Source: a virus
Taxonomy: Duplodnaviria; Caudoviricetes
Reading direction: 5' to 3' (one strand)
Virus record (IMG/VR): IMGVR_UViG_3300042539_001740
Length of the DNA stretch: 64,000 nucleotides
The notes beneath the pieces are model-generated. The model did no database searches, was not told where the DNA came from, and was given only the letters and a program-made list of their open reading frames with translations. Positions 13,856 to 61,993 of the stretch are shown one piece after another. The position numbers and the translations under genes are program-made. How positions within the stretch are numbered: the first letter of the stretch is position 1; every line of letters starts with the position of its first letter.

Positions 13856-14364
13856 TTCCAACCTGTTAATTGTAATGTATATCGCATATCTTGTCCAATA
13901 TTTGCCGCCATATGTTTTGTATTTCCATACCATGCCACAAAAGTACCTGCTTTATAGTTAAAAAAAGGTTGACCATCAACTTCAAAATAGTGTCCACTTT
14001 TCCAATCCTCCAAAAAGATTAAAACTCTATGGATTTGATTTAATTCCAAATTGAATTTTTTTCTATACACATTATAGTGGTCACTATGTGTGGGTAATAT
14101 AACCCCTGTTTCCATACGATAATAACAAACACCAATGTCTTTTAGACCAAGATTTTCTTCTACATATTTTACAAACTTATCTGTCCAAATTGGATGGTTC
14201 TCGCCAAATGGACACATCATGCCTGAAAATAACTCAACATCTTGTTTATATCCTAAATTACGCCAATTTTCGATATCACTTTGGTTGTTAAAAATTTCTC
14301 GTTTATAATTTAAATTTTTAAATTCGTCATCCCAAAATTTTTCTATTTTACCTTGACTCCACAT
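13852..14364 (-). CDS. 2OG-Fe(II) oxygenase-like protein
   Basis: HxD (THSD), distal His (TKH) and Arg (DMR) on a jelly-roll pattern. Confidence 0.7.
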   Translation of the reverse strand: MWSQGKIEKFWDDEFKNLNYKREIFNNQSDIENWRNLGYKQDVELFSGMMCPFGENHPIWTDKFVKYVEENLGLKDIGVCYYRMETGVILPTHSDHYNVYRKKFNLELNQIHRVLIFLEDWKSGHYFEVDGQPFFNYKAGTFVAWYGNTKHMAANIGQDMRYTLQLTGWK

Positions 14365-39519: not shown

Positions 39520-40485
39520 ATGAGTCAATCAATAACAATTAGTAGTATAAATTATAGTGGGGAACAAACAAGTATTGTGTTTACACCACAAGGGACTACT
39601 AATGTGTTTAACTTGGGGGTTCAAACTCTACCTTACACATTTTCATCAAATACATTGACACCTCCACAAGAGATTTATGGGACTTATAGTATTTTATCAT
39701 TGAGTGGTGATTGTTTGAGTATTTTGAATGTACCAAGGCCAACACCAACCCCAACACCTACTATTACACCTACAAGGACTCAAACTCCAACTCCGACATC
39801 TACTGTCACACCAACACCGAGTTATGACCCTTGTAAAGTACCAACTCCGACACCAACAACGACACAAACACTTACACCGACACCAACGATATCTGTTACA
39901 CCAACAGTTACACCAAGTAGAAATCCTTGTGTAACTCCAAGTAAGACACCAACTGCGACACCTACACCTACTAAAACACCACCAACAACGGCAACACCAA
40001 CAGTTACACCTACTATAACACCGACTAATACACCAACGAATACGGTGACACCAACGACTACACCTACTACAACACCAACGGTGACACCTACGATTACACC
40101 AACATCAACTGTGACACCAACACCTTCAGTGAGTCCTTTAGGACCTGAATCACCAAAAATATATTATGGTAAGTTCAGTGGTTCGTCAATTACTTCAGGT
40201 GAAACGAGTGGATTAACTAGTGGTTATACAAGTAATCCTGTTAATAGTGCTGTTGTACTGCCAAGTGGTTCAAGTGGTGATTATGGATATATTTTAATAC
40301 CAACTGGTTTAACACAACCAAGTGAGTTTAGAGATAGTAGTGCGGGATGTTTAGGTAGTTTAATACCATTTAATAACATAGGTACGATAATTATAGTAGA
40401 CGCTAATGGGTTTAGCATAACATACAATGTATATAGGACATTCTTCCCATTTGTTGCAAGTGTGAGTGTGTGGTTATGTCCTTAA
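39520..40485 (+). CDS. Virion protein with a long mucin-like Thr-Pro domain
   Basis: About 135 aa of (T/S/V/I)-T-P repeats. Confidence 0.75.
39733..40137 (+). repeat. Coding Thr-Pro low-complexity repeat
   Basis: ACACCAAC-rich degenerate tandem repeat. Confidence 0.9.
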
Positions 40486-42466: not shown

Positions 42467-43249
42467 ATGATTATTACACACGAAGGTAAAATTGTTGATT
42501 TGGGTGGAGTACCAGTCGTGTTAGGTGTTGATGTACCACCAACACCTTCGATTACTCCAACTATAACACCAACATTAACTATTACACCTACACCAACACC
42601 AACTAGTGGTGCAACATCAGCATTAAGGTTATTGATTTTAGGTGATGCTCAAGTATCAACAGTGTCAGGACAAGTTTCAAATGAAATTGTTTCCCTTGGT
42701 TATCCAACACCAACAATTTCAGCTGTAACAATTTCAACAACCTATAGTGGTACTGGTTTAAGTTCAAGTAGTTGGGATGTTGTGTTGTACTACACCAACT
42801 CTTCACAAACTGGTGCCGTTACCTTGAACACTTCTTTGAGGAACTATGTTGATAGTGGTGGTAATTTAGTTGTTGGAACATTTATTTGGAATCTTAGGCC
42901 AATAGGTTTTGATTTTACCTTAACACCTTATGTTGGTACTGTGAATCAAAGTAGTGACTCAACTGGTAATATGACAGTAACAATAGTACATCCAATAACA
43001 ACAGGTGTGGGGACTGGTTTAACAACTAATAGTACAGTACAAAATAATTTGGTAACAACTTTACAAAGTGGTGCAAATACAATTGCTACATATACAACAT
43101 CAGGATATCCAATAATTGGTATTAATACAGTTGGAACAGCAAGATTAGTTGGTATTAACCTTTATTTCCCATCATATATTGCAACTCGTGCTAATTTAAG
43201 AAGATTAGTTACAAATGCTGTACTATGGGCGGGTAAAGTTTTGAATTAA
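42467..43249 (+). CDS. Putative virion protein with a Thr-Pro linker and an alpha/beta C-terminal domain
   Basis: PPTPSITPTITPT linker; LRNYVDSGGNLVV and LVTNAVLWA resemble a class I GATase/ThuA-like fold. Confidence 0.6.
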   Translation: MIITHEGKIVDLGGVPVVLGVDVPPTPSITPTITPTLTITPTPTPTSGATSALRLLILGDAQVSTVSGQVSNEIVSLGYPTPTISAVTISTTYSGTGLSSSSWDVVLYYTNSSQTGAVTLNTSLRNYVDSGGNLVVGTFIWNLRPIGFDFTLTPYVGTVNQSSDSTGNMTVTIVHPITTGVGTGLTTNSTVQNNLVTTLQSGANTIATYTTSGYPIIGINTVGTARLVGINLYFPSYIATRANLRRLVTNAVLWAGKVLN

Positions 43250-45916: not shown

Positions 45917-46816
45917 ATGATTGATTATAATAACCTCCCCAATTTAGACAATAGTGTTGCTATATTTTACGCTATTGGTTCGAGTACTTGGCAAACTTGG
46001 CAAAAACCAAGGGGTTGTAAGTTTGTATATATGCTCGTCATCGGTGGTGGGGCTGGAGGTGGTGGAGGTCAATCAGGTACTGGTGTCGGAAGAACTGGTG
46101 GTGGTGGAGGTGGGTCTTCGGGTATGAACAAAGGTATGTTTATGGCTAATACACTACCTGATATTGTATACATCAATGTTGGTTATGGTGGGGCTGGTGG
46201 AACACCAAATAGTAACGGAAGTGCTGGTAGTATTTCATATGTATCAGTTTTACCTGATACTACAAGTGTGAATGTTTTACTATATAGTAATTCCACCACA
46301 CCTGGTGGAGGTGCTGCTGCAGGTACTCTTGGAGGTACTGGTGGTGCACCTACAGCGGCAAATCAAATCTTGGGTTATTCAGGTGTCAATTTATTTGGTG
46401 CAGGTCAAAATGGTACAAGTGGTGGGTCTAATGCAGGAGGTAATGGTACGGCTTTAGCACCAACTTCTCCATTATGTGGTGGGTCTGGTGGAGGTGGGTC
46501 AAGTGCCGCAAACGCAAATGGAACTGGTGGTAATGTGAATACAGGTGGTGTTTTTCCTACATTATCAGGTGGAGCAGCGGGTGGCACAAATAGAGGAACT
46601 GATGGATTTACAGGTTCTTTTCCAAATAAATCAAATGTTTTAAGAAACGCCTTTATTTTTACTGGTGGTTCGGGTGGGGGAGCAAATGGTGCTGGTATAG
46701 GGGGTGATGGTGGTAATGGAGCTTTCGGTTGTGGAGGTGGTGGTGGAGGTGCTGGGACTACTGGTGGTTCAGGTGGAAGAGGTGGTGATGGTTTAGTAAT
46801 AATTATATCTTGGTAA
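45917..46816 (+). CDS. Glycine-rich protein, paralogue 1 (adhesin-like)
   Basis: WQTWQKPRGCKF..IGGGAGGGG ... GGRGGDGLVIIISW. Confidence 0.8.
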   Translation: MIDYNNLPNLDNSVAIFYAIGSSTWQTWQKPRGCKFVYMLVIGGGAGGGGGQSGTGVGRTGGGGGGSSGMNKGMFMANTLPDIVYINVGYGGAGGTPNSNGSAGSISYVSVLPDTTSVNVLLYSNSTTPGGGAAAGTLGGTGGAPTAANQILGYSGVNLFGAGQNGTSGGSNAGGNGTALAPTSPLCGGSGGGGSSAANANGTGGNVNTGGVFPTLSGGAAGGTNRGTDGFTGSFPNKSNVLRNAFIFTGGSGGGANGAGIGGDGGNGAFGCGGGGGGAGTTGGSGGRGGDGLVIIISW

Positions 46817-46817
46817 T

Positions 46818-47708
46818 ATGTTAGATTTATTTCATTTAGCCGATACAACTTATAATACTCAAGTATTTTATAGAACAGGCCCTTGGGAAACTTGGATTAA
46901 ACCTAAAGGTTGTAAATTCATACACTTCTTTGTATTAGGAGGTGGTGCTGGTGGTGCTGGTGGATTGACAGGTATTGCCGGAACTAATAGAAATGGTGGT
47001 GGTGGAGGTGGTAGTAGTGCCCTAACAACACTATTAATTCCCGCTTTTTTTGTCCCTGAAAGATTACATATTTTAATAGGTCCAGGTGGTGCTGGTGGGG
47101 CTGCGTCATCGAATGGTACTGCGGGAACTGTTACTTATGTTGGAATAAATAATGTTACAACATTTGTCCAAAATCATCTAATTATTAGTAGCTCGAGTAA
47201 TAATACCGGTGGGAATTCAAATGCTGCTGCAGGTACTGGTAATAATCCTAATACCGTAGCTAATAGTGTATTGATGGGTATGGGTATTTTTAATTCTATC
47301 GGTGGTGTTAATGGTTCTGTTGGGGGTTCTTTTGGAGCAGGAACAAATATTACAATATCAAGACCAACAACTGGTGGTGCAGGTGGTGGGGGTTTAACTA
47401 CAGCTAATGTTCAAGCCGTTGGTGGTAATATAACTGGAGCAGGGTTTATCCCCACGATAAGTGGTGGAGCTGTTGGTGGATTTAATGGTGGTGCGGGATT
47501 TAATCAATTTAATCCCTCATCGATACTATCAAGTTCTTCACCTTTATTTTTTACAGGTGGTGCTGGTGGTGGTTCGAATGCAAGTGGTACTGGTGGTAAT
47601 GGTGGAGATGGTGGATGGGGTTGTGGCGGAGGTGGTGGAGGGGGTGGACTCACTGGTGGAAGAGGGGGTAGAGGTGGCGATGGTTTAGTAATAATAACTT
47701 GTTGGTAA
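46818..47708 (+). CDS. Glycine-rich protein, paralogue 2
   Basis: WETWIKPKGCKF..LGGGAGG ... GGRGGDGLVIITCW. Confidence 0.8.
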   Translation: MLDLFHLADTTYNTQVFYRTGPWETWIKPKGCKFIHFFVLGGGAGGAGGLTGIAGTNRNGGGGGGSSALTTLLIPAFFVPERLHILIGPGGAGGAASSNGTAGTVTYVGINNVTTFVQNHLIISSSSNNTGGNSNAAAGTGNNPNTVANSVLMGMGIFNSIGGVNGSVGGSFGAGTNITISRPTTGGAGGGGLTTANVQAVGGNITGAGFIPTISGGAVGGFNGGAGFNQFNPSSILSSSSPLFFTGGAGGGSNASGTGGNGGDGGWGCGGGGGGGGLTGGRGGRGGDGLVIITCW

Positions 47709-47712
47709 TAAT

Positions 47713-48633
47713 ATGATAGATAATTTTAATTTACCTAATAATGATAAGAATGTTCAATCATTCTATGGGATAGGTTCGGCTGTTTGGCAAACTTGGCAAA
47801 AACCGAATGGTTGTAAGTTTATGCAAATGATTGTCATCGGTGGAGGTGGAGGAGGTGGTGCGGGTGCTACAAGTATTGCTGGTAGTGCTAGGTCAGGTGG
47901 TGCTGGTGGTGGTGCTTCGGCAATAAGTCGAGCTTTTGGTACACTTTCAACTATTCCTGATACACTTTATATTTTAGTTGGTATGGGGGGTACTGGTGGG
48001 TTACCTACGGCAGGAGCTGGAGGTAATGGTACTGTAGGTACTTTATCGTATGTTAGTGTACAACCAAATACAACAACATCAAATATAATTTTAGCAAGTG
48101 GAGCTGCCGCAGCAGGGGCAGGTAATGGTGGAGCTGTCGGTAGTTCTAATGCTACCGCAGGTAGTGCTGGTACAGTATTTCTTCAGACCGCAGGATTTCT
48201 TAGTTATAATTTTTTGGTATCTTTGATAGCTGGACAATTAGGGGGAAGTGGAGGTAACCAAAATCAATCAGGTACTGCAGTATCTTTGACTAATATCGTT
48301 TCAGGTGGTGCAGGTGGAGCTGGTGTATCAACAACTTCTCGTGTTGGTGCGAATGTAACAGGTTCAGGATTTGTCTCAACAATAAACGGAGGTAATCCAA
48401 CCAACCCATCTGAAGCTGATAGCGGATTCTCATCATATAATGAGCAATTAATCAATATGCCATATAATTTGTTTTTCACAGGTGGTGCTGGAGGATACGC
48501 TAATAATACTACCGCTGGAGGTATTGGAGGAAATGGTGCGTATGGTTCAGGTGGTGGAGGTGGTGGTGCTGGAACTACTGGAGGAAGAGGTGGAAATGGA
48601 GGGGATGGTTTAGTTATAATAACTTGTTGGTAA
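47713..48633 (+). CDS. Glycine-rich protein, paralogue 3
   Basis: WQTWQKPNGCKF..IGGGGGG ... GGNGGDGLVIITCW. Confidence 0.8.
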   Translation: MIDNFNLPNNDKNVQSFYGIGSAVWQTWQKPNGCKFMQMIVIGGGGGGGAGATSIAGSARSGGAGGGASAISRAFGTLSTIPDTLYILVGMGGTGGLPTAGAGGNGTVGTLSYVSVQPNTTTSNIILASGAAAAGAGNGGAVGSSNATAGSAGTVFLQTAGFLSYNFLVSLIAGQLGGSGGNQNQSGTAVSLTNIVSGGAGGAGVSTTSRVGANVTGSGFVSTINGGNPTNPSEADSGFSSYNEQLINMPYNLFFTGGAGGYANNTTAGGIGGNGAYGSGGGGGGAGTTGGRGGNGGDGLVIITCW

Positions 48634-48645: not shown

Positions 48646-49899
48646 ATGCCACATCAAATAAGTATATCAGCAACAACTGGGACACCCCCATATCAAGTCA
48701 TAGTTTGTGATGTAACATTAATCTATTGTTATACACTAACTGGCTCAACATCATTATCGGCAACAACAACTTTTGATATTCCATCACCTTTAGATGTTGC
48801 GGATAGTATAATTATTAAAGTTATTGATAGTAACGGATGTGAAACATTTTTACCATATAGTTGTCCTGTAACACCGACACCTACTCCAACAATTACACCT
48901 ACACCAAGTTCGACACCAACTGATTTATGTAGATGTATTCAAATAACGAATACTGGAACAACTGGTGGAACTTTTTATTATACACAATGTGATGGAACAA
49001 TTACAAGTGTATTACCAATCAACTCAGGTACAACATTATATTATTGTGGTAGTAATCCAATTGCTTTGACTGAATGTGATATTTTTATTGGTGATGTTTG
49101 TGTAAACAATAGTTGTGTTGCAATCACACCTACACCAACACCAACGATTTCATTAACCCCAAGTGTAACACCAAGTATAACACCAACAATAAGTGTAACA
49201 CCAACAATTTCAGTAACTCCGAGTATAACACCTACAATAAGTGTAACACCAACTATAACACCAACAATAACTCCAACAATAAGTGTAACACCAAGTATTA
49301 CACCATCTGTTACACCAACATCATCTCCATTACCTTCAACATTTGCTTATTTGTTTATTGAACCAATAAGTGCCGCAACAAGTATTGGTAACTATATGTT
49401 TGGTAATGGAGCTCCACAATTCTTTGGTTTCAGTAATACAAGTCAACCAAGTTCAAGTGCAACGACATTTAATACTGAGATGAACTTGTATGTTAATTAT
49501 AGTGGTTGGACAAATGGTGAATTACCAACGATTATAACATCCAATGTACCACAAACAACTGGTGGTGTAGATAGTTTCGGTAATACAAAAATAGCATACA
49601 ATTTTGAAACGACAGAAATACTTCAAAATACAATATTAGACCAAGCTTGGTACACTTGGATTATACCAATTGTTTTAACAAATAATCAATCTCAATTAGA
49701 TATTGATTTAAGTTTAGGTAATCCGAATGTATTTAGTAATGTGTTAACAGAATCAACAATTAGAACAAATACATTTACATATACTGGTTCAACAATACCA
49801 TCAGTAACTTATAGGGTATATACAACATATCCAGCTGGTGATTTCTTAATAGATAATCAAACGACAGATATATATTTTAAAGGAGGTAGTGTAGGCTAA
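48646..49899 (+). CDS. Virion protein with two Thr-Pro tracts and a Cys-containing module
   Basis: ORF translation; TATTTAT motif at 48634-48640. Confidence 0.75.
   Translation: MPHQISISATTGTPPYQVIVCDVTLIYCYTLTGSTSLSATTTFDIPSPLDVADSIIIKVIDSNGCETFLPYSCPVTPTPTPTITPTPSSTPTDLCRCIQITNTGTTGGTFYYTQCDGTITSVLPINSGTTLYYCGSNPIALTECDIFIGDVCVNNSCVAITPTPTPTISLTPSVTPSITPTISVTPTISVTPSITPTISVTPTITPTITPTISVTPSITPSVTPTSSPLPSTFAYLFIEPISAATSIGNYMFGNGAPQFFGFSNTSQPSSSATTFNTEMNLYVNYSGWTNGELPTIITSNVPQTTGGVDSFGNTKIAYNFETTEILQNTILDQAWYTWIIPIVLTNNQSQLDIDLSLGNPNVFSNVLTESTIRTNTFTYTGSTIPSVTYRVYTTYPAGDFLIDNQTTDIYFKGGSVG
49126..49329 (+). repeat. Coding (I/V)TP(T/S) tandem repeat
   Basis: ACACCAACAATAAGTGTA-type units. Confidence 0.9.
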
Positions 49900-52800
49900 T
49901 GAGTTTTCCATATAAAAATCCAATAAGTCCTAATCAATTATTGGGACAACAAAGTTTAGAAAGAACAAAAACATTTGGGACTAGTTACTCAACTTTGTCC
50001 ACTGGTGGTTATATGGAAGTATATTCTTTAGACCAACTATATTACACAATCCCGCCATCCACATTCGGACCAATTGAGTTTAGTGGAAATAGTATTCCAA
50101 TCACATTTTCAAAAGGTAGTGGTACAACATTTTCCTATGATACATTAACTTTACAACCTGACAATATTTCTTCGGGTAGAAGAAAACAAGGTATGTTGGT
50201 TTATGTAAAAGAAGTTGACCAAGTTTATCAATATTCAATTAATAACTACGAAACCCTTTGGAACAATGCAACTGGTTCTACTGGTACAACAATAATATCA
50301 GACTTTGGTACGACCATAAGGGCTAACTCACCTGAAAATATAACTTTCATTAATAGTTGGACAGCAAATACTATTGATGGGGTTGGTGGTGTAACACGAG
50401 CTAATGCTGTATGGAAAAAATATCACGGAACTAATTTAGCTATAACTGGTGGTTCTTATAATTCTATCACGAACACATTGACATTAACAAACATAACTGG
50501 GGGCACTCAAAATATCACTGGTTTTGGAGGTGGAGGTGGTGGGGGTGCTACAATCACTGGTGGTACTTTTGACAAGAACACTGAGACATTAACTTTAAGT
50601 TCTTCAGGTGGTAGTATATTCATTACAGGTTTTACTGATGTTTATACAACTGGTGGTACTTTTGATAATGGTGCAAAATCTTTAGAGTTATATGATAATA
50701 GTGGAAATACTATTACTATAACTGGATTTACATCTGTAACAGGTTTAACAGGTGCTGGAGCTTATGGAAGTTTTTCAGATACAACTAACCAACCAGTTAG
50801 TGGTGCTAATATAGAAACAGTTTGGACATATAACACAACCGAGATTTCCAATGGTATATATATATCAGGTGGTTCAAAAATTAGGGTATCACAATATGGA
50901 ATTTATAGTATAGGATATTCGGGTCAAATTGAAAAAACACAAGGTGGTACTGCAACCGATGTTACAATATGGGCAAAAATAAATGGAAATAATGTGGACA
51001 GAAGTTCATCAACAACTACATTAGTTTCTAACTCCGCATATATACTCCCATTTGTTTCGTACATATTTGAACTATATCCTAATGACTATTTGGAATTTTA
51101 TTTTTCAGCTCCAAGTCAATATGTACAACTAACAACATTATCAGGATTAACTTCACCAACAAGACCAGATTCTCCTTCAGTAATTATTGTTGCACAATCT
51201 GTGTTAGGAACTACCGCAACATTTACTGGTAATACTTCAGCAACTTGTATTACTGACTTGTATGTTGAAAATCTATATGGTTGTTCACCAATTAATGTTA
51301 ATGATTTATTAATTGGAAATTCAGGAATAACAACATCAAGTTTAACAGGTACAACTATTAGAAATAACTTTATTGTTGATAGTGGGAACACAATCACGAT
51401 AAAAAACTCAAATAGACAATTGATGGATACTTCAGGTGTCGTGTCTGTTGATTGGTCAAATAGAACTATTAACGATAGTGGAAACAACATATCAATAGAT
51501 TGGGAAAATAGAAAAGCAAAAGATACTTTAGGTAATAATTCTATCGATTGGGAGAGTAAAGGTTTAATCGATTCTACAAATACAAACTCAGTCGGCTGGG
51601 ATTCAAGAAGAGCATATGATAGTTTGGGTGGAACTAGTTTAGATTGGGAATCTAAGGATTTATATGATTCATCTTCAGTAATTTCGTTAAACTATAACTC
51701 AAGAACTTTAACTGACTCAGGGTCAAATATACTTTTGGATTGGCAAAATGGTATTGCTGATTTAAGTAGTTTATATTCAACAAATATTTCTGCAAATACA
51801 ATATCAGCAACAACTTATCAGAATCTACCAACAGAAGTTTTTGTAACTGGTGCAACTTATTCTAATAATACAATTACTTTCACCAATAATACTGGAGGTA
51901 CTTTCAATGTTTTATTTAACACCTTTACTGGTGCTACGATTAATGGTAATTTAAGTGTAACTGGTTCAACTTCTTCATCTTCATTTAGTGGAAGTAGTGA
52001 TACAATAACTGGCAGTAAAGGTAGTGTAATCACAAGTGGTAGTTCTACAACCGCGTTTATTAATGTTTCAGGTAGTAATACAGTTGGGGGTACTGGATAT
52101 ACTGACTTCATAAGAGTTACAAATACCGCAGCAGGAGCTACAAATATAAACAAAACAATTCGTGTTAACAATAATGGTCGTTTAGAGTTTTTGAATAGTG
52201 CATATACCTTCCAAACATTAAACTTGTCAGATAATGGAATTCTTAGTGTTGGTGGGGATAATTTTGCAGGGACATCATCAAGTGATGGCGTATCAAATTA
52301 CTTACAATTTGGTAATAATGCCTCCCAAATCTATGATGATGGTAATTTTCACATTCATAGTAGGTCTGCTGGGCAATCAATGTGGATTAACACTAATGGT
52401 GGACAATTAAATCTATTAACTCAAGCACCACTTGCTGGTGCCAGTATAGGTTCAGGTATTGCTATTGCAACTACATCATTGAATGGTTATGTAACTATCA
52501 ACACTGGTAGAACTGTTACTACGGCCGCAGCTTATGGATTTTTGACCACGGGTGGTGCTGGTACTTACCCAGGTGGTTCTCAGTCAGTATCCATTTCATT
52601 ATATGCAAACAATCGTATTTGGGGTCAAGAAATAGATGCGTTCTCAGATGAGAGAATGAAGGACATACAAGGTGAAATAACTTTAGAAGAAGGAGTTAAA
52701 TTGGTGAATAATTTAATACCAATTAAATACACTTGGAAAGAAGGTGATGATAAAGATATAAAAGCTGGTTACTCGGCACAACAAGTGTCAAAGGCGGGAT

Positions 52801-52997
52801 TTGACCACCTAATCAGTTTAATACCAAAAGAAGGTTTAGAAGAAACAATAGATGAGGATGGATTTTTAAGTCCAAAAGATACACAATTTTCGATGAATTA
52901 TGACCAAGTAACACCATATCACGGAATTGTTATTAAACATTTATTGGAAGAAATTGAAAACCTTAAAAAAGAGATTGAGAGTTTAAAGAATAAATAA
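49899..52997 (+). CDS. Long tail fibre/spike with a C-terminal peptidase S74 intramolecular chaperone
   Basis: FSDERMKDI...IPIKYTWK...GYSAQQV...MNYDQV followed by a coiled coil. Confidence 0.85.
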   Translation: MSFPYKNPISPNQLLGQQSLERTKTFGTSYSTLSTGGYMEVYSLDQLYYTIPPSTFGPIEFSGNSIPITFSKGSGTTFSYDTLTLQPDNISSGRRKQGMLVYVKEVDQVYQYSINNYETLWNNATGSTGTTIISDFGTTIRANSPENITFINSWTANTIDGVGGVTRANAVWKKYHGTNLAITGGSYNSITNTLTLTNITGGTQNITGFGGGGGGGATITGGTFDKNTETLTLSSSGGSIFITGFTDVYTTGGTFDNGAKSLELYDNSGNTITITGFTSVTGLTGAGAYGSFSDTTNQPVSGANIETVWTYNTTEISNGIYISGGSKIRVSQYGIYSIGYSGQIEKTQGGTATDVTIWAKINGNNVDRSSSTTTLVSNSAYILPFVSYIFELYPNDYLEFYFSAPSQYVQLTTLSGLTSPTRPDSPSVIIVAQSVLGTTATFTGNTSATCITDLYVENLYGCSPINVNDLLIGNSGITTSSLTGTTIRNNFIVDSGNTITIKNSNRQLMDTSGVVSVDWSNRTINDSGNNISIDWENRKAKDTLGNNSIDWESKGLIDSTNTNSVGWDSRRAYDSLGGTSLDWESKDLYDSSSVISLNYNSRTLTDSGSNILLDWQNGIADLSSLYSTNISANTISATTYQNLPTEVFVTGATYSNNTITFTNNTGGTFNVLFNTFTGATINGNLSVTGSTSSSSFSGSSDTITGSKGSVITSGSSTTAFINVSGSNTVGGTGYTDFIRVTNTAAGATNINKTIRVNNNGRLEFLNSAYTFQTLNLSDNGILSVGGDNFAGTSSSDGVSNYLQFGNNASQIYDDGNFHIHSRSAGQSMWINTNGGQLNLLTQAPLAGASIGSGIAIATTSLNGYVTINTGRTVTTAAAYGFLTTGGAGTYPGGSQSVSISLYANNRIWGQEIDAFSDERMKDIQGEITLEEGVKLVNNLIPIKYTWKEGDDKDIKAGYSAQQVSKAGFDHLISLIPKEGLEETIDEDGFLSPKDTQFSMNYDQVTPYHGIVIKHLLEEIENLKKEIESLKNK
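51393..51752 (+). repeat. About 7.5 copies of a 16-aa repeat (xSxDWxxRxLxDSxGx)
   Basis: VSVDWSNRTINDSGNN / ISIDWENRKAKDTLGN / NSIDWESKGLIDSTNT / NSVGWDSRRAYDSLGG ... Confidence 0.85.
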
Positions 52998-53052: not shown

Positions 53053-54303
53053 ATGTCAACTATATTCGTACAAATAGCGGCCTTTAGAGACCCCCAACTT
53101 AATCCCACCTTACAAGATATGATTTTCAAAGCCAAGTATCCTGAGAACTTGAGGGTTGGTATTTGTAATCAATATAATGAAGAAGATAATTTCAATTTAG
53201 ATGAATACAGAAATGATGATAGATTTAGAATCATTGATGTGTTAGATAAGGAATCATTGGGTGTATGTTGGGCAAGACATAGTGTGCAACAATTATATTC
53301 AGGTGAAACATATACATTACAGATTGATTCTCATATGAGATTTGAACAAGATTGGGATGTTACCTTAATTGATATGATTAATAGTTTACAGTTAAGTGGT
53401 TACAGTAAACCATTGTTAACTGGTTATGTATCTTCATTTGACCCAGATAATGACCCTGAAGGTAGAGTGAATGAACCTTGGAGAATGACCTTTGATAGAT
53501 TTATACCTGAAGGTGCTGTATTCTTTTTACCTGAAGTTATACCAGGATGGCAAGAACTAACAAGTCCAATTCCCGCAAGATTTTATTCAGCTCATTTCTG
53601 TTTTACATTAGGTGAGTTTAGTAATGAAGTTCAACATGACCCTGAATACTATTTCCACGGAGAAGAAATTAGTGTTGGTGTTAGAGCATTCACTCACGGA
53701 TATGATTTATTCCATCCACATAGAGTTGTTATTTGGCACGAGTATACCAGAAAAGGTAGAACGAAACAATGGGATGTTGATAAGGTTTGGTTTAAGAAGA
53801 ATGAAAAATCACACGCAAGAAATAGAAGATTGTTTGGTATGGATGGTGAAATATTTAACCCTGAAGAGTTTGGTAAATACGGATTTGGTACTGAAAGAAC
53901 TTTAGAAGATTATGAGAAATACGCAGGTATTAAGTTTAATAAAAGAGGAGTACAAAAATATACAACAGATAAATACTATCCACCAAATCCATATAATTTT
54001 GAGACAGAGGAAGATTATTTAAATAGTTTTGCGAGCGTGTTCAAACATTGTATTGATGTTGGATTTACATCTGTACCTGAAAAAGATTATGATTTTTGGG
54101 TTGTAGCATTCCACGACTCAAAAGATGAAACGATGTTTAGACAAGATGCTGACATTAATGAAATAAACAGAGTAATGCAAGACCCTGATGGATATTGTAA
54201 GATATGGAGAGAGTTTAATACGATTCAAAAACCAGCATATTGGGTTGTATGGCCACATTCAAAATCAAAAGGGTGGTGTGATAGATTAACTGGTAATTTG
54301 TAA
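53053..54303 (+). CDS. GT60-like polypeptide/hydroxyproline N-acetylglucosaminyltransferase; start revised to 53053
   Basis: IFVQIAAFRDP, GVCWAR, LQIDSHMRF..DWD, YFHGEEI, RAFTHGYD. Confidence 0.75.
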   Translation: MSTIFVQIAAFRDPQLNPTLQDMIFKAKYPENLRVGICNQYNEEDNFNLDEYRNDDRFRIIDVLDKESLGVCWARHSVQQLYSGETYTLQIDSHMRFEQDWDVTLIDMINSLQLSGYSKPLLTGYVSSFDPDNDPEGRVNEPWRMTFDRFIPEGAVFFLPEVIPGWQELTSPIPARFYSAHFCFTLGEFSNEVQHDPEYYFHGEEISVGVRAFTHGYDLFHPHRVVIWHEYTRKGRTKQWDVDKVWFKKNEKSHARNRRLFGMDGEIFNPEEFGKYGFGTERTLEDYEKYAGIKFNKRGVQKYTTDKYYPPNPYNFETEEDYLNSFASVFKHCIDVGFTSVPEKDYDFWVVAFHDSKDETMFRQDADINEINRVMQDPDGYCKIWREFNTIQKPAYWVVWPHSKSKGWCDRLTGNL

Positions 54304-54304: not shown

Positions 54305-54997
54305 ATGTTTGATATTCGTAAGGTAAAAAAAATAGTAATAAACTTAGAAAGGAGACCCGATAGATTAAAGTTATTCAAAGACGAAATGGATTTTATTGGT
54401 TGGGAGTATGATATTTTTAAGGCGATTGATTATGGTAGTTATTTAGGTTGTGCTTACTCTCACTTAAAAATATTAGAGGACTTCTTAGCTACTGATGAGA
54501 AATACATTATGATATTTGAGGACGATTGTTATTTTATGCCTTATGTAAAAGAACAATTGGAAAAATCACTATTTGAGTTGAGTGAAGTAGATTGGGATTA
54601 TTTTCATTTAGGACCTAGTATAAATTGTCCTGTTAATAATTTCTCCAACCATTTACTAAATCTTAGTGAATTACCAAAACAAGAAGAACACCATAGGGGA
54701 ATCTATAATACTGTTTGTTATATTATTAATAGGAAGTTTGCTCAGATGGCTATAATATGGAATGAAAAAAATCAAAAAGCTATTGACCAATATTATTATG
54801 AAGACATTTTTAAAGAACTAAAGTGTTTCGCCCCATCTTTACCTTTAGTAACTCAAAGAGTGGGGTTCTCTGATATCAATAAAACCACCGATAACAATCA
54901 TTATTTAATAACTTACAACTGGAACTTGTATACTAAGAACAAATTAGATATACAATATTACGATATAAATTATTGTGAAAACCTGAAATACTCATAA
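54305..54997 (+). CDS. GT25 family glycosyltransferase
   Basis: VINLERRPDRL, GCAYSH, IFEDD. Confidence 0.85.
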   Translation: MFDIRKVKKIVINLERRPDRLKLFKDEMDFIGWEYDIFKAIDYGSYLGCAYSHLKILEDFLATDEKYIMIFEDDCYFMPYVKEQLEKSLFELSEVDWDYFHLGPSINCPVNNFSNHLLNLSELPKQEEHHRGIYNTVCYIINRKFAQMAIIWNEKNQKAIDQYYYEDIFKELKCFAPSLPLVTQRVGFSDINKTTDNNHYLITYNWNLYTKNKLDIQYYDINYCENLKYS

Positions 54998-54998: not shown

Positions 54999-55877
54999 AT
55001 GAAAACATTATTCCTAACTTGTATATACAATAACTTATTTGGTACTGAGTTTGGTGGTAGACCTAGTAGAGAAGAACATTATAAATATAGCTTGTTATCA
55101 CTATTGAGAATGACAAGTGCCGATTTTATTTGTTATACAAATCCAAGTGATTTGTCAAATCTGGAACATTTTTTTCATAATCAAAATGGAATATCAAAAG
55201 ATAAATTAAAATTCATTCCTTTCAAACTAAAGGATACAAAACATCATCATATTTTTTCGAAGTACAAAGACATTGATACGATAAAGAATGGTGATAGATG
55301 TTTTGAAATTCAGTACAATAAGTTTTTTTGGTTTTTCAATGAAACGTTAAGTTACGACAACTATTATTGGATAGATGCAGGTCTAAGTCATTGTGGTATT
55401 ATTCCCGACAAGTATTTGGTGAACAATAACACTTATCAAAGATATTTTAATTCTTACTTTTTTGATGACACCTTTTTAGATAGGTTAATTGAAAAATCGA
55501 AGGACAAGATTTTAGTAATTGGTAAATCTAATACTGGCTCAAATTTTTGGTCGAATACTTTACCCAATGAATATTATATAGAATACGATAGTTCGTATCA
55601 TATAATTGGTGGTTTATTTGGTGGAACAAAAAAAGTTATGAAAAAATTTGTTGAGGAGTTTGAAAGGATTTTCTTGTGGGTTACTGAAAAAGAAAAAAAA
55701 CTATATTCTGAGGAACAAATTATGACCACAATCTTTATGAATAATAAAGAATGGTTTAATTTATTTTCATTCGATGTTTGGTGGCACGAAAACAATTTAA
55801 CACCTGATTGTCCATCAAATTATTTAACAATTAACAAAAGTTTTTATAAAAGTTTGGAGGATATAAAAGGTGAATAA
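54999..55877 (+). CDS. HtrL/YibB-like putative glycosyltransferase
   Basis: YYWIDAG, IIGGLFGG, SEEQIM; paralogous to the N-half of the next gene. Confidence 0.6.
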   Translation: MKTLFLTCIYNNLFGTEFGGRPSREEHYKYSLLSLLRMTSADFICYTNPSDLSNLEHFFHNQNGISKDKLKFIPFKLKDTKHHHIFSKYKDIDTIKNGDRCFEIQYNKFFWFFNETLSYDNYYWIDAGLSHCGIIPDKYLVNNNTYQRYFNSYFFDDTFLDRLIEKSKDKILVIGKSNTGSNFWSNTLPNEYYIEYDSSYHIIGGLFGGTKKVMKKFVEEFERIFLWVTEKEKKLYSEEQIMTTIFMNNKEWFNLFSFDVWWHENNLTPDCPSNYLTINKSFYKSLEDIKGE

Positions 55878-57543
55878 TTTAACATTAGTAACAGGATTAT
55901 GGGATATAGGTAGAGACCAATTAACTGAAGGTTGGTCAAGAACATACCAACACTATTTAGATAAGTTTGAAAGTTTACTCAAATTAGATGTAAACTTAAT
56001 AATATTTGGTGATACCGACTTACAAAGATTTGTAGAACAAAGAAGAGATTCACATAACACACAATTCATAATAAGACCAAAAGATTGGTTCATTAATAAT
56101 GAGTTCTATCCAAAGATACAAAAGATTAGGCAAGACCCAAGTTGGTACAATCAAGTTGGTTGGTTAAAAGATTCAACCCAAGCAAAACTTGAAATGTATA
56201 ATCCTTTGGTTATGTCCAAAATGTTCTTACTAAATGATGCAAGAATATTGGATAAGTTTAACTCAGATTATATGTTTTGGATTGATGCTGGTATTACAAA
56301 CACAATTCATCCTGGTTATTTTACCCACGATAAAGTATTAGACAAATTACCCAAATATGTAGATAGATTCCATTTCGTTTGTTTCCCTTATGAAACAAGT
56401 ACAGAGATTCACGGATTTGAAATAAATGCGATGAATAATTACACCAAAACAAAAACAAACAGAGTTGCAAGGGGTGGTTTCTTTGGTGGAAAAAAAGAAA
56501 GAATCAATGATATGAACTCATTGTATTATATGTTACTTAATGATTCATTATCAAAAGGATTTATGGGCACTGAAGAATCCATATTCACAATAATGACTTA
56601 TCTATATCCCCAACATATCAACTATTCAATGATAGAGGGTAATGGATTGATGGGTAAGTTTTTTGAGGATTTGAAGAACGACACATTGGAAGTATTAAAT
56701 GAAACACCTGAACCAATCAAATATCAAAGTAATGATATATCTAAGGTGGGTTTATATGTTATCACATTCAACTCACCAAAACAATTTGAGACCTTAATAA
56801 AATCAATGTTAGAATATGATAGGGATTTTATAACCAAACCAAGAAAGTTTTTGTTGGATAACTCAACAGATTTATCAACAACACCAAGATATAAAGAATT
56901 GTGTGAACAATATGGATTTGAACATATAAAGAAAGATAATATTGGCATAATGGGGGGTAGGATATTTGTTGCCGAACATTTTAATGATACCGATTTAGAT
57001 TTCTACTGGTTTTGGGAAGATGATATGTTTTTCTATCCAAAGAATGAAACTTGTAAAAATGGATTTAATAGATATGTAATCAACTTATATCAAAAAAGTT
57101 TAGAGATTATTCAAAAAGAAAAGTTCGATTTTCTTAAACTAAATTATACGGAGTTTTATGGTGACAATGGAACACAGTGGGCGTGGTACAATGTACCCCA
57201 AGATTTTAGACAAAAACATTGGCCAAACAATCCAAAACTTCCACAGATGGGATTAGACCCAAATGCACCTAAAACAAAGTTTGAATTCATCAGTACTCAT
57301 AAAGGTGTACCATATGTAGGTGGAGAAATCTACCTATCAAATTGGCCAATCGTTTTAAGTAAAGAAGGTAATTATAAATGTTATTTGGAAACAAAATGGG
57401 CTCACCCATTCGAACAGACCCTCATGTCGTATTGTTACCAAGAAACAATAAAAGGGAAAATTAAACCTGGTTTATTGTTGTTAACCCCCACCGAGCACAA
57501 TAGGTTCGACCATTACGATTCAAAATTGAGAAAAGAAAATTAA
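55870..57543 (+). CDS. HtrL/YibB-like domain fused to a GT-A domain
   Basis: LVTGLWDIGR, FWIDAG, GGFFGG, TEE; C-half LLDNS, FWEDD. Confidence 0.65.
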   Translation: MNNLTLVTGLWDIGRDQLTEGWSRTYQHYLDKFESLLKLDVNLIIFGDTDLQRFVEQRRDSHNTQFIIRPKDWFINNEFYPKIQKIRQDPSWYNQVGWLKDSTQAKLEMYNPLVMSKMFLLNDARILDKFNSDYMFWIDAGITNTIHPGYFTHDKVLDKLPKYVDRFHFVCFPYETSTEIHGFEINAMNNYTKTKTNRVARGGFFGGKKERINDMNSLYYMLLNDSLSKGFMGTEESIFTIMTYLYPQHINYSMIEGNGLMGKFFEDLKNDTLEVLNETPEPIKYQSNDISKVGLYVITFNSPKQFETLIKSMLEYDRDFITKPRKFLLDNSTDLSTTPRYKELCEQYGFEHIKKDNIGIMGGRIFVAEHFNDTDLDFYWFWEDDMFFYPKNETCKNGFNRYVINLYQKSLEIIQKEKFDFLKLNYTEFYGDNGTQWAWYNVPQDFRQKHWPNNPKLPQMGLDPNAPKTKFEFISTHKGVPYVGGEIYLSNWPIVLSKEGNYKCYLETKWAHPFEQTLMSYCYQETIKGKIKPGLLLLTPTEHNRFDHYDSKLRKEN

Positions 57544-57597: not shown

Positions 57598-57804
57598 CAA
57601 TAAAGGGTTAGAATAATGGTCTTGGTTGATGACTTTCCTTAAAGTTAGGGTGTGTGGGCAACTCCTGATAGTCGAAAATGATAGACAGCTTGATTACATC
57701 GAAAGATGGTGACTATTGGCTCTCTGGTATATAGCCAAACCAGCGTGTCTCCAAAGTACGAAAATTGGAAACTTGAAAAGGGTGAGAATTATTCTCACCT
57801 TTTT
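57598..57804 (+). ncRNA. Candidate structured non-coding RNA, family not recognised
   Basis: Promoter-to-terminator unit with no credible ORF; about 40% GC by hand count; GNRA-capped stems and long-range complementarity. Confidence 0.5.
57776..57804. terminator. Bidirectional intrinsic terminator
   Basis: GGTGAGAA / TTCTCACC stem with A4 upstream and T5 downstream. Confidence 0.75.
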
Positions 57805-58427: not shown

Positions 58428-59180
58428 ATGGAATTCTTTATTAAAAAGAACGCAACCCTACCCCTCCTTAAGCTTCAGGTGGTGAAGAATGGCAGATTGG
58501 ATTATGATAATTTTATGTCGTTAATCGAAGAATCGGCATTATTCTTTTCAATGATGGATGTGGAGACTGGTGTTCCAAAGATTACATCGAGACCTGCGGG
58601 ATTTGTTGAAAAAACAAATGTTGACCCTAATGCTGACCCTGAATATTATTTATACTATCAATTTCAAAATAGAGACACAAATAGAGTAGGAAGATTCGAG
58701 GGTCAATTTATGTTAAGAAGTTCTGATGGTGTATTAATTTTACCTATTAGAGAAAAGTTATATATTAATGTACAAGAATCTTATATTGCTGATGATTTGG
58801 AATATGATAGTTGTTATGTATCAGAGTTTCCTTGTTGTATAAATGGCCCTGCAACTGGACTAACAATTAATCTTAATTTAACAAGTATTGTAACATCAGG
58901 TTCAGTAAATGTTGATTATGTTATAACTTCATCACAACAATTAAACAATCAATTAGATTTAACTTTCACAAATACATTAGGTCAAATAACTGGTACAGGT
59001 ATTACAATTACATCAGCAATAACAATTAATTCAGGTACAACAATAGGATATGCTCAAGTTATAACTGGTGATGATTATACGGATTTAGATGGTACATCAG
59101 TATTCACTAATTTAGCTGTAACTTATCCTATTTCCTACACTTTCGACATAACCACTAATAGTATTTTTCCTGATTTGTAA
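58428..59180 (+). CDS. Putative virion protein with a BppU-N-like domain
   Basis: FFIKKNATLPLL...YYQFQNRDT...GRFEGQF pattern. Confidence 0.5.
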   Translation: MEFFIKKNATLPLLKLQVVKNGRLDYDNFMSLIEESALFFSMMDVETGVPKITSRPAGFVEKTNVDPNADPEYYLYYQFQNRDTNRVGRFEGQFMLRSSDGVLILPIREKLYINVQESYIADDLEYDSCYVSEFPCCINGPATGLTINLNLTSIVTSGSVNVDYVITSSQQLNNQLDLTFTNTLGQITGTGITITSAITINSGTTIGYAQVITGDDYTDLDGTSVFTNLAVTYPISYTFDITTNSIFPDL

Positions 59181-59275: not shown

Positions 59276-61993
59276 ATGATTACACCTGAAGAAATCGAAA
59301 GTTTCTTAAACGGAAACGACCCCGAAGAGCACATCGTTGCCATAGAATATGATTGGGCAACAGAAAACATTTTCAAAATCAAAGAAATCCCTGGAAAAGG
59401 GAAAGAAATTAGAAAAGATACATTCACCCCATTTGCTTGGGTTGGTGACCTCCACGGACTTAACTTTTACAAATCATCCAAAGGACTTCAAAAAGAAGCA
59501 ATGACCAAACACGGAATCCTAATTGAGAAATTGGATACTGGTGGAAATGAACGATTAGAAAAAGGTCTAAAGTTTTTGGTTAAATCTTTAAAAGGATATA
59601 GAAGTTTAATGCAATTCTTCAAAGAAGGAGGAATTGACCCATATGGAGATAATACTAAAGAATACTTCCTTATACCATCACCAGTAGAACAATACCTTAT
59701 CCAAAAGGAAAAAAGATTGTTTAAGGGTTATGAAGAATACAATGACATTACAAGATTAGGATTCGACTTAGAAACGACCTCTTTAGAACCTAAAGATGGT
59801 CGAATCTTTATGATTGGAATCAAAACAAATAAAGGACTACAAAAAGTAATCGAATGTGCCAATGAAGACCAAGAACGAGCTGGTATTGTTGAGTTCTTTA
59901 GAACAATAGATGAAGTTAAACCATCAATCATTGGTGGATACAATTCATTCAACTTCGACTGGTATTGGATTATGGAAAGATGTAAAGCTCTACATTTGGA
60001 TATCAAAAAGATATGCAAAACTTTACATCCAGAATATAATATGAAACAAACCAAGGGTATGTTAAAACTTGCTAATGAAGTTGAGGAATATACACAGATT
60101 GGAATGTGGGGATATAATGTTATTGATATTCTACACTCCGTTAGAAGAGCACAAGCAATCAACTCAAACATCAAATCCGCTGGTCTTAAATATATTACCC
60201 AATACATCAATGCTGAAGCTGAAGACCGAGTTTATATTGGACATACTGATATCGGTTCAATGTACGCCAAGAAAGAAGAGTATTGGTTAAATGTTAAGAA
60301 TGGTAAATACAAAAAGGCCGACAAACCTGAATACAACGACTTGGATAAAAAATATCCTGGTATCTATATCAAAACAACTGGTGATAATATTGTTGAACGA
60401 TACTTGGATGATGACTTGGAAGAAACCTTGAAGGTGGATGATGAGTTTAATCAAGGAACATTTATGTTGGCATCGATGATTCCAACAACATATGAAAGAG
60501 TTTCCACCATGGGGACAGCCACTTTGTGGAAGATGCTTATGATGGCTTGGTCTTATAAGTATAAATTGGCCATCCCCCAAAAAGAACAAAAGAAAGATTT
60601 TGTTGGTGGATTATCAAGATTGTTAAGAGTGGGTTATTCGAAGGATGTATTAAAACTTGACTACTCATCTCTTTATCCATCTATTCAATTAGTACACGAT
60701 GTTTTCCCTGATTGTGATATTATGGGGGCTATGAAAGGTATGTTGTCTTATTTTAGAAGTGCTCGTATCAAATACAAGAACTTAGCAGCTGAATGGTATG
60801 ACAAGGATAAGAAAAAATCATTGTCCTACGATAGAAAACAATTACCCATTAAGATTTTTATCAACTCAATGTTTGGTGCTTTATCAGCTCCACAAGTGTT
60901 TGCTTGGGGTGATATGTATATGGGTGAACAGATTACTTGTACAGGAAGACAATATCTTCGTCAAATGTTAAAGTTCTTTATGAAGAGGGGTTATACTGCG
61001 TTGGTATGTGATACGGATGGTATGAACTTCTCATTACCTGAAGGTGGTGTTGATGATAGAGTTTATATTGGTAAAGGTCTTAATTGGAAAGTTAAGAAAG
61101 GAAAAGAATATAAAGGTTATGATGCTGATGTTGCTGAGTTCAACGACACCTTTATGAAGGGTGAAATGGCATTAGATTGTGATGGAACTTGGAAATCTTG
61201 TATTAATCTTGCTCGTAAGAATTATGCAACGATGGAACATAATGGTAAAATCAAATTGACTGGTAACTCAATCAAATCCAAAAAACTTCCATTATACATT
61301 GAGGAATATTTGGATAAAGCAATTAGATTATTATTGGAAGGTGAGGGACAGAAGTTTGTTGAATGGTATTATGAATACTTAACTAAAATCTATAACAAAG
61401 AAATCCCCCTTCTTAAAATTGCACAAAGAGCAAAAGTTAAGTTGAGTATTAAGGATTATATTGAGAGGTCAAAACAAACAACCAAATCAGGTGGTGCCAT
61501 GTCTAGAATGGCGCATATGGAACTGGCTATTAAACACAATCTAAAGGTGAATCTTGGTGAGGTGATTTATTATGTTAATAATGGTGTCAAAGCAAGTCAC
61601 GGAGATGTTCAAAAGAAGAAAGATGAAGTGGTATTAAATTGTTATATGTTAAATCCAAATGACATTGAGAATAATCCTGATATGTTGGGTGATTATAATG
61701 TAGCAAGAGCAATAACAACTTTCAATAATCGTATTGAACCTTTATTAGTTGTATTCAAACAAGAAGTTAGAGATACTTTAATTATTGATAACCCTGAGAA
61801 AAGACAATTCTATACACAACAACAATGTGAACTAATTAATGGAGTACCATTTGAAGAAAAAGACCAAGATAGAATCAAAGAGGATTTGTTAGATTTAGAA
61901 CCAAAAGAAATAGAGTATTGGAACAAAAGAGGAATTGACCCCAACTATATTTACGATTTGGCTGAAGAAGGATGGGAACAATATATTGATTAA
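59276..61993 (+). CDS. polB: Family B DNA polymerase
   Basis: FDLET, GYNSFNFD, DYSSLYPS, KIFINSMFG, CDTDG. Confidence 0.95.
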   Translation: MITPEEIESFLNGNDPEEHIVAIEYDWATENIFKIKEIPGKGKEIRKDTFTPFAWVGDLHGLNFYKSSKGLQKEAMTKHGILIEKLDTGGNERLEKGLKFLVKSLKGYRSLMQFFKEGGIDPYGDNTKEYFLIPSPVEQYLIQKEKRLFKGYEEYNDITRLGFDLETTSLEPKDGRIFMIGIKTNKGLQKVIECANEDQERAGIVEFFRTIDEVKPSIIGGYNSFNFDWYWIMERCKALHLDIKKICKTLHPEYNMKQTKGMLKLANEVEEYTQIGMWGYNVIDILHSVRRAQAINSNIKSAGLKYITQYINAEAEDRVYIGHTDIGSMYAKKEEYWLNVKNGKYKKADKPEYNDLDKKYPGIYIKTTGDNIVERYLDDDLEETLKVDDEFNQGTFMLASMIPTTYERVSTMGTATLWKMLMMAWSYKYKLAIPQKEQKKDFVGGLSRLLRVGYSKDVLKLDYSSLYPSIQLVHDVFPDCDIMGAMKGMLSYFRSARIKYKNLAAEWYDKDKKKSLSYDRKQLPIKIFINSMFGALSAPQVFAWGDMYMGEQITCTGRQYLRQMLKFFMKRGYTALVCDTDGMNFSLPEGGVDDRVYIGKGLNWKVKKGKEYKGYDADVAEFNDTFMKGEMALDCDGTWKSCINLARKNYATMEHNGKIKLTGNSIKSKKLPLYIEEYLDKAIRLLLEGEGQKFVEWYYEYLTKIYNKEIPLLKIAQRAKVKLSIKDYIERSKQTTKSGGAMSRMAHMELAIKHNLKVNLGEVIYYVNNGVKASHGDVQKKKDEVVLNCYMLNPNDIENNPDMLGDYNVARAITTFNNRIEPLLVVFKQEVRDTLIIDNPEKRQFYTQQQCELINGVPFEEKDQDRIKEDLLDLEPKEIEYWNKRGIDPNYIYDLAEEGWEQYID

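Follow-up and report, generated by a model that had tools for sequence, protein, structure and literature searches.

Why would a phage carry a peptide-type glycosyltransferase gene directly behind its fibre genes, and what would the enzyme modify? The question is raised by the open reading frame (ORF) at positions 53053-54303 of the window, the 64-kb stretch of DNA analysed here, which belongs to a 194.5-kb IMG/VR virus record from an uncultured lake phage. An initial annotation had called the product a GT60-like peptide N-acetylglucosamine (GlcNAc) transferase. It had also proposed a priming step on threonine (Thr) or hydroxyproline (Hyp), with a 2-oxoglutarate (2OG) oxygenase encoded elsewhere in the window. 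We think it somewhat probable that the enzyme adds an N-acetylhexosamine to Thr or Ser in the Thr-Pro (TP) tracts of the phage's own fibres, in the cytoplasm, and that this first sugar is then extended by a strain-specific gene cassette.

The ORF lies on the + strand and encodes 416 amino acids (aa). Its start was set at the ATG at 53053 because homologues of 414-416 aa align over 100% of it, and a TTG start upstream, at 53038, was rejected on the same grounds. The protein matches PF11397, 'Glycosyltransferase (GlcNAc)', which is CAZy family GT60, at E 1e-70 (239.4 bits against a cut-off of 21). The match is in two stretches (profile positions 1-45 and 92-351), and phrog_24687 is matched end to end at E 1e-163. 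A search against the sequences of PDB chains returned a chance match only, a solved relative being undetectable by sequence. In an alignment of 44 homologues with 36-90% identity, the DxH motif reads QIDSH (LQ[IL]DSH), with D92, S93 and H94 conserved in at least 90% of the sequences. The N-terminal strand IFVQIA.(Y/F)RD is also conserved, and W101-D102, E204-E205, R211, G216 and H229, the last in WHEY, are invariant. By analogy with GT27, the DxH motif and H229 may supply the metal ligands.

The AlphaFold2 model (predicted local distance difference test score, pLDDT, 96.2; predicted template modelling score 0.90) consists of a GT-A catalytic domain (~1-323) and a separate beta domain (~325-416). 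For the latter, neither Pfam at loose thresholds gave a family nor a protein atlas a usable match. The top Foldseek match among the Swiss-Prot models was Gnt1 of Dictyostelium, which adds GlcNAc to hydroxyproline of Skp1 (E 3e-26, template modelling (TM) score 0.65, 24% identity, residues 3-323), and all matches below it were polypeptide N-acetylgalactosamine (GalNAc) transferases at about 1e-11. In the PDB, ranks 1-37 were all GT27 polypeptide GalNAc-transferases from human, mouse, fly and Toxoplasma (E 5e-11 to 3e-9). The initial annotation had taken a glycolipid or polysaccharide GT2 enzyme as best structural match to speak against its proposal. Gnt1 and GT27 come ahead of all such enzymes, the first being the wall-polymer enzyme TarS at PDB rank 38. 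By both sequence and fold the protein is a genuine GT60-family enzyme, and this part of the initial annotation stands.

All characterised GT60 enzymes are polypeptide alpha-GlcNAc-transferases (PMC8724618). The phage enzyme is predicted to be soluble and cytoplasmic: neither the four cassette proteins nor the TP proteins have a signal peptide or transmembrane segment, and in the four cassette proteins the maximum 19-residue Kyte-Doolittle mean stays below 1.0. The protein had already been labelled a glycosyltransferase in its PHROG entry and in the annotation of Xanthomonas phage XacN1. A literature search combining GT60 or PF11397 with phage found no functional study, although a sponge-virome preprint lists GT60 among viral carbohydrate-active enzymes. 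We found no paper describing the whole arrangement of a GT60 cassette beside TP fibres.

Gene order and the variable cassette

The GT60 gene begins 55 nucleotides (nt) after the 1032-aa fibre gene, on the same strand as the fibre genes upstream. It is followed by a GT25 gene (1-nt gap), the gene for a 292-aa protein (1-nt gap) and an HtrL-like gene (8-nt overlap), as listed in Table 1. The described co-orientation with Pro-Thr-rich genes, followed by GT25 and HtrL-like genes, was borne out, with all of them on the + strand and the 292-aa gene in between. A strong hairpin stands behind the HtrL-like gene, and from the fibre gene to the cassette genes the + strand has no comparable terminator. 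As read from the sequence, this hairpin is likely the end of a fibre-plus-glycosyltransferase transcription unit. A scan for sigma-70 promoters was uninformative (65 sites versus 73 expected).

Table 1. Coordinates of the features discussed, by position in the window
Position	Strand	Feature	Remarks
13852-14364	-	Double-stranded beta-helix protein, 170 aa	HxD...H...RxT; inside nucleotide-sugar gene cluster; judged outside the GT60 system
37352-39502	+	Virion-structural-like protein, 716 aa	phrog_8510 (E 5e-4); TP tract 347-386; first gene of the block
39520-40485	+	321-aa protein, candidate acceptor	149-residue mucin-like tract 66-214 (Thr 39%, Pro 26%)
42467-43249	+	260-aa protein	TP tract at residues 21-54
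45917-48633	+	Three paralogous glycine-rich appendage proteins	PF21722; between TP-tract genes
48646-49899	+	417-aa appendage protein, candidate acceptor	TP tracts 66-98 and 156-236
49899-52997	+	Tail fibre, 1032 aa	PF13884 Peptidase_S74 (E 2.6e-6, residues 916-968); immediately 5' of GT60
53053-54303	+	GT60-family (PF11397) GT-A glycosyltransferase, 416 aa	Pfam, PHROG, AlphaFold2, Foldseek
54305-54997	+	GT25-family glycosyltransferase, 230 aa	PF01755 (E 4.7e-15); phrog_2835 glucosyltransferase
54999-55877	+	292-aa protein	Often kept in related cassettes
55870-57543	+	HtrL/YibB-like protein, 557 aa	PF09612 (E 1.1e-15); TIGR02192; end of cassette
57776-57804	+	Intrinsic-terminator-like hairpin	Strong; stem of 13 bp and a run of T, behind the HtrL-like gene
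59276-61993		Family-B DNA polymerase (PolB)	After the cassette

NCBIfam gave no match for the GT60, GT25 or 292-aa proteins. The 292-aa protein matches neither Pfam, loose thresholds included, nor PHROG, and by BLASTP it is 27-30% identical to XacN1 ORF332 and Xoo-sp13_302. The HtrL-like protein is 43% identical to XacN1 ORF330. Its N-terminal half is HtrL_YibB, and its C-terminal 300 aa lack a Pfam match even at loose thresholds; that this part is GT2-like is a language-model lead only.

The same order recurs widely. From 80 IMG/VR loci encoding proteins 66-98% identical to the GT60 protein we derived 65 non-redundant contexts. The GT60 gene is the first of a same-strand cassette in all 65, and an HtrL-like gene follows in 61. 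Between these two lie 0-7 genes, which encode 111 distinct proteins in 43 clusters. The transferase families among them by Pfam are GT34, DUF273, GT25 (in a variable slot, and present in only some related loci), GT10, GT2, GT7, PLOD-type glycosyltransferases, RXYLT1_C and nucleotide-diphospho-sugar transferases. There are also several methyltransferases, a carbamoyltransferase, nucleotidyltransferases and a HAD phosphatase. The interior is swapped while the GT60 and HtrL-like genes stay, and these two are therefore the fixed ends of a hypervariable glycan-tailoring cassette. The genes upstream of GT60 in the related loci are as variable as the interior. A TP-tract ORF lies immediately upstream in 22 of 60 contexts and within three upstream genes in 31 of 48, and none was found at GT60 itself or at the next gene downstream in the related contexts.

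Only four of 50,697 cultured phage records carry the gene, namely those of the Xanthomonas jumbo phages XacN1 and Xoo-sp13 and the Stenotrophomonas jumbo phages CM1 and RAS14. Their GT60 proteins are 45-50% identical to that of the window. In XacN1 and Xoo-sp13 the cassette has a carbamoyltransferase in its interior. A baseplate-wedge module lies ~3 kb away, and its last gene encodes a TP-tract protein of 3313 aa (ORF325 in XacN1). Purified XacN1 virions give at least two periodic-acid-Schiff-positive glycoprotein bands, and the GT60 homologue ORF334 is one of two candidate enzymes named for them (PMC5852040). Between these two phages (loci L003 and L004) and the window, the GT60 and HtrL-like proteins are 43-50% identical and the PolB proteins 21-27%. 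These sequence comparisons suggest that the cassette is either horizontally mobile or very strongly constrained.

In a third clade, whose members are ~170 kb long and whose GT60 proteins are 44% identical, the gene is present as a tandem pair, with 2-8 variable genes and then an HtrL-like gene behind it. One of its subclades encodes TP-tract homologues of the 417-aa protein directly upstream of the tandem GT60 genes and even between them. Three distant homologues that were looked up lay mostly on short contigs; on one, a Tara Oceans contig, the order is GT60-GT60-methyltransferase-sulfotransferase-HtrL.

Thr-Pro tracts as candidate acceptors

In the window, four genes with TP tracts belong to a + strand appendage block that starts at 37.3 kb. 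The 417-aa protein is 30% Thr and 21% Pro, with repeated PT[VI][TS] units. In related loci, genes for TP-tract homologues of it either immediately precede the GT60 genes or alternate with them. None of the TP proteins matches Pfam at loose thresholds. The C-terminal domain of the 1032-aa fibre is, by its sequence match, an intramolecular chaperone.

The association extends to whole genomes. A DNA pattern coding for TPTPTPT was found in 10 of 10 large contigs with GT60, 3-27 times in each, and in none of 12 large contigs without it, five of which are at least 92% complete. The reversed pattern, used as control, had one match in all 22 contigs. Approached from the other side, PF11397 was present in seven of 13 large contigs that had been chosen solely for a (TP)4.5 tract, as against the four of 50,697 cultured phage records. 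Furthermore, all three complete genomes of the ~170-kb tandem-GT60 clade contain a TP tract.

On this basis we propose the following scheme. The GT60 enzyme, presumably metal-dependent through its DxH motif and of GT-A fold, would transfer the first sugar directly onto the hydroxyl of Thr, or of Ser. This sugar would probably be alpha-linked GlcNAc from uridine diphosphate (UDP)-GlcNAc, by analogy with every characterised member of the family. The targets would be the TP repeats in fibre and appendage proteins of the phage itself, which would be modified ahead of virion assembly or in its course. The GT25, 292-aa and HtrL-like proteins, the last with two domains and all three probably co-transcribed with GT60, would extend the first sugar, and further transferases and nucleotide-sugar enzymes encoded at 9-30 kb may contribute. 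With the interior swapped (at least 43 families), the hypervariable fibres would thus be coated with mucin-like glycans that differ from strain to strain. The analysis shows family, fold, motifs, lack of a membrane anchor, gene order and co-occurrence with TP tracts; which sugar is donated, which residue and which proteins receive it, and in what sequence the enzymes act, we infer.

Several points weigh against this scheme. Donor and acceptor are extrapolated from protist enzymes that are only 24% identical, the biochemically characterised members of PF11397 including no prokaryotic or phage protein. The Schiff-positive material of XacN1 is described as bands and not as named proteins, and ORF334 is a candidate enzyme for it. 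One subclade with GT60 lacks TP-tract genes within 8 kb, and TP tracts occur in large phages that lack GT60 (G023, 100% complete, and G033, 93%). The co-occurrence counts set a few clades side by side, which is less than a sample of many independent events, and the contigs used as controls belong to different groups of phages. The record itself is incomplete, at an estimated 66%. PF11397 is also common in bacterial chromosomes, at 583 loci or more and in mixed contexts, in one case beside a polysaccharide priming transferase (Bac_transf). Finally, GT25 and HtrL are classically families of the lipopolysaccharide (LPS) core.

This last point leads to an alternative that we regard as unlikely, though it deserves to be taken seriously: during infection the cassette would build or remodel a glycan of the host cell (LPS core, O-antigen, a capsule or an oligosaccharide linked to lipid), one possible purpose being to keep superinfecting phages out, and its place beside the fibre genes would be incidental. 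GT25 and HtrL/YibB are indeed best known from LPS-core loci, hypervariable glycosyltransferase cassettes resemble O-antigen loci, and one bacterial homologue has the Bac_transf neighbour mentioned above. A review of jumbo phages also takes phage glycosyltransferase clusters as modifiers of outer polysaccharides (PMC7824862). Yet no characterised GT60 enzyme has a non-protein acceptor (PMC8724618), and the structural neighbours are polypeptide transferases, with TarS no higher than rank 38 in the PDB. The 194-kb record also contains neither a polyprenyl-phosphate priming transferase (PF02397, PF00953) nor a Wzx flippase (PF01943). The strong co-occurrence with TP tracts and the glycoproteins of XacN1 virions likewise weigh against this alternative.

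The position of PolB after the cassette here, and of the XacN1 cassette near PolB and RNase H, would fit an enzyme that glycosylates phage DNA at hydroxymethyl-pyrimidines, as protection against restriction. Phage GT-A enzymes can build multi-sugar DNA modifications, but the known ones resemble JGT/TarP, have R...DDD...EDY motifs and are always accompanied by a thymidylate-synthase-like hydroxymethylase or a TET-type dioxygenase (bioRxiv 10.1101/2023.12.21.572611). Neither PF00303 nor PF12851 was found in the 194-kb record. With the DxH motif and the polypeptide-transferase neighbours of the enzyme, we give this explanation hardly any credence.

The environmental phage group with this enzyme accounts for over 7000 clusters of proteins at 90% identity (4682 at 50%), and the family is also present in bacteria. 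In Ralstonia and Cupriavidus (L200:6894-9400 and L205:6899-9400) a PF11397 homologue of 465-478 aa, matching the catalytic domain only, is encoded directly after a MrkD-like fimbrial adhesin gene, and a similar gene order was judged from ORF sizes in Paraburkholderia (L224). A Pfam tally of the genes around the bacterial homologues gave TssF of the type VI secretion system near three Burkholderiaceae loci, TssG near two and ImpA/TssA near two. This context suggests either adhesin glycosylation or a secreted effector. Among metagenomic proteins, P0124, P0125, P0126, P0134 and P0136 (1600-2461 aa) have up to four separate GT60-domain matches. A scan of viral contigs seeded with P0217 found no relatives.

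Could the phage enzyme, then, be a takeover or conflict effector that glycosylates proteins of the host or of a competing phage, like the bacterial GlcNAc-transferase toxins? Its predicted cytoplasmic, soluble nature would suit such a role, the C-terminal beta domain could serve as a targeting module, and the TssF genes and MrkD-like adhesins of the bacterial loci are compatible with it. The gene, however, stands at the end of a late-type structural operon and not among early genes, and the multi-enzyme cassette for glycan extension downstream would be needless for a single-sugar toxin. Together with the co-occurrence of GT60 with TP tracts in the phage's own proteins, this makes an effector role improbable in our judgement.

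Two observations concern the neighbourhood of the fibres. The region of the glycine-rich trio has a local GC content of 43.5%, versus ~30% elsewhere, and several related loci (L006, L057, L061) have the same trio ahead of GT60. Between the cassette and PolB lies a gene for a 250-aa protein (58428-59180, + strand) that has no Pfam match at loose thresholds. Its homologues (L005-L082) range from ~120 to 1231 aa and often have TP tracts. It may be a second variable candidate acceptor, downstream of the cassette.

The candidate oxygenase and the wider genome

The hydroxyproline form of the priming proposal depends on the ORF at 13852-14364, which would hydroxylate Pro in the TP tracts so that GT60 could add GlcNAc to Hyp, as in Skp1. 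The ORF is probably a 2OG oxygenase, judging from its model (pLDDT 94.8), which is a double-stranded beta-helix, and from H93, D95, H151, R161 and T163, which are invariant in 32 homologues. By its own sequence it has no significant Pfam or NCBIfam match (E 0.15 to PF05118); eight of the 32 homologues weakly match PF05118, the Asp/Asn beta-hydroxylase family, with a best E of 3e-5. When a profile of the family was searched against the sequences in the PDB, nothing came up beyond a chance match with a phi29 late-gene activator. The initial assignment thus keeps its ORF, iron triad, basic residue for 2OG binding and fold, lacks a significant family match, and is plausible in a weaker form.

Which substrate the fold points to is less clear-cut. 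The structural matches include prolyl 4-hydroxylases, AspH, OkaE and PolD, and the highest TM scores (0.59-0.61) are those to prolyl 4-hydroxylases. Foldseek values of about 1e-5, however, are common to prolyl 4-hydroxylases, AspH, proline 3-hydroxylases, lipid hydroxylases, fungal dioxygenases and plain cupins. The prolyl 4-hydroxylase family PF13640 was found neither in this protein nor in the genome. The gene lies between those of a UDP-sugar dehydrogenase and an acetyltransferase, on the opposite strand and 39 kb from GT60, and these neighbours suggest sugar chemistry as much as protein chemistry.

The distribution of the two genes bears on the matter more directly. The oxygenase profile had no match in ten related GT60 contigs, five of them 93-100% complete, and PF11397 had none in 12 oxygenase contigs, five of them at least 92% complete. 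In the positive controls, the oxygenase profile recovered the window's own genome (E 2e-85) and PF11397 was found in the GT60 controls. Since the oxygenase is absent from these relatives, GT60 evidently works there without it, and a direct Thr/Ser acceptor is the simpler reading. That the closest named relative, Gnt1, is specific for Hyp, and that the HxD...H...RxT residues are kept, count for the hydroxyproline route; with this distribution, the distance and the missing family match, we nevertheless consider it very improbable. The priming proposal accordingly survives in one of its two forms: the Thr-linked step gains indirect support from synteny, from TP co-occurrence in three clades and from the XacN1 glycoproteins, while the hydroxyproline step is unsupported.

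The oxygenase family itself is widespread, comprising 1940 protein clusters and occurring on at least 595 viral contigs, marine ones (Tara) included (loci L085-L164), and has no curated family. As called, the hexapeptide acetyltransferase ORF at 13328-13933 overlaps the oxygenase ORF by 82 nt; it probably begins in reality at an ATG further downstream.

The minus-strand cluster at 9-30 kb that holds these genes also encodes three GT11, one GT17 and several GT2 enzymes, together with DegT aminotransferases, the acetyltransferase and dehydrogenase already named, and an epimerase fused to a C-methyltransferase. In this fusion protein of 854 aa (18269-20833, - strand), an NAD-dependent epimerase/dehydratase is joined to a zinc-binding sugar C-methyltransferase, which suggests that the phage makes a deoxysugar that is branched or C-methylated. 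One DegT/DnrJ-type aminotransferase ORF (12610-13335, - strand) has 241 aa against a profile of 360 positions, is matched in two stretches and may be truncated or split. A full-length paralogue is present at 25393-26691.

Further genes of the window encode PhoH, the family-B DNA polymerase and the tail fibre with its Peptidase_S74 chaperone domain. The record has ~30% GC, and the phage is taken to be a jumbo phage because relatives reach 290-322 kb. A megablast search with 16 kb around the GT60 gene gave no match among cultured phages. The nearest matches in genome collections are contigs binned with metagenome-assembled genomes of Saprospiraceae, Bacteroidia and Chitinophagia, and a Bacteroidota host therefore fits.

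Relation to known glycosylation systems

Mucin-type O-glycosylation initiated by GT60 or GT27 enzymes is regarded as eukaryotic and Golgi-based, and glycosylation of phage structural proteins has, to our knowledge, been demonstrated only rarely. If Thr/Ser priming of TP fibres is correct, a very abundant environmental phage group would possess a soluble, cytoplasmic version of this chemistry, with a plug-in cassette that diversifies the phage glycan. This bears on host recognition by fibres, protease resistance and surface adhesion. It would also offer compact enzymes for making defined O-glycopeptides in bacteria, and a testable link between bacterial and phage GT60 genes and the eukaryotic enzymes. 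The cultured carriers of the cassette, XacN1, Xoo-sp13, CM1 and RAS14, make testing practical.

More tentatively, and with somewhat more doubt than confidence, we suggest that many aquatic and soil phages share a 'glyco-code' locus, in which fixed GT60 and HtrL-like ends, a swapped interior and variable TP fibres together produce strain-specific, cytoplasmic mucin-like O-glycan coats. Such a locus would be to viruses of prokaryotes what mucin-type O-glycosylation is to eukaryotes, and it may be connected with the origin of the eukaryotic process.

Among characterised enzymes, Gnt1 (UniProt Q8T1C6, GT60) is the nearest, belonging to the same Pfam family and giving the best predicted-structure match. 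Both proteins are soluble, cytoplasmic, of ~420 aa and free of a membrane anchor, and in both systems the first sugar is extended by further transferases, as is proposed for the phage. Gnt1, however, needs a prolyl 4-hydroxylase and modifies one Hyp of one protein, whereas the phage gene is accompanied by no conserved hydroxylase and has long TP repeats as candidate acceptors. The two are 24% identical, and the extra C-terminal beta domain (~325-416) of the phage enzyme lies outside the alignment.

The GT60 initiators of mucin-type glycosylation in Dictyostelium and Trypanosoma cruzi belong to the same family and can be set beside the phage enzyme by description only (PMC8724618). They act on Thr/Ser in Thr/Pro-rich mucin-like repeats, such as the neighbouring phage genes encode, and their first sugar is elaborated by variable transferases (PMC8724618). 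They differ in being type II membrane proteins of the Golgi, working in the secretory pathway, whereas the phage enzyme is anchorless and by prediction cytoplasmic. The closest solved structures are those of GT27 GalNAc-transferases (human GalNAc-T2 and T4; PDB 2ffu and 6h0b), which share the GT-A fold, the DxH metal motif and the succession of catalytic domain and C-terminal accessory domain. They belong to another family at 10-15% identity, use UDP-GalNAc as donor and have a ricin-type lectin domain at the C terminus in place of the small beta domain.

Among phages, the closest parallel is that of XacN1 ORF334 (BBA65482.1) and Xoo-sp13_304, which are 48-50% identical to the window's GT60 protein over the full length, the C-terminal domain included. 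The cassette has the same ends there, with the HtrL-like proteins 43% identical and a homologue of the 292-aa protein. It adjoins the giant TP-tract protein after baseplate genes, and XacN1 virions stain for glycoproteins. The differences are a carbamoyltransferase in place of GT25, a gammaproteobacterial host, 50% GC and a PolB only 21-27% identical, so that the cassette has diverged much less than the replication core. In mycobacteriophages, as is proposed here, transferases encoded by the phage act in the cytoplasm on structural proteins of the same phage (Freeman et al. 2023, as cited in PMC12619734). As far as that citing account goes, the glycans are at the C-termini of capsid and tail-tube subunits and not on fibre TP tracts (PMC12619734).

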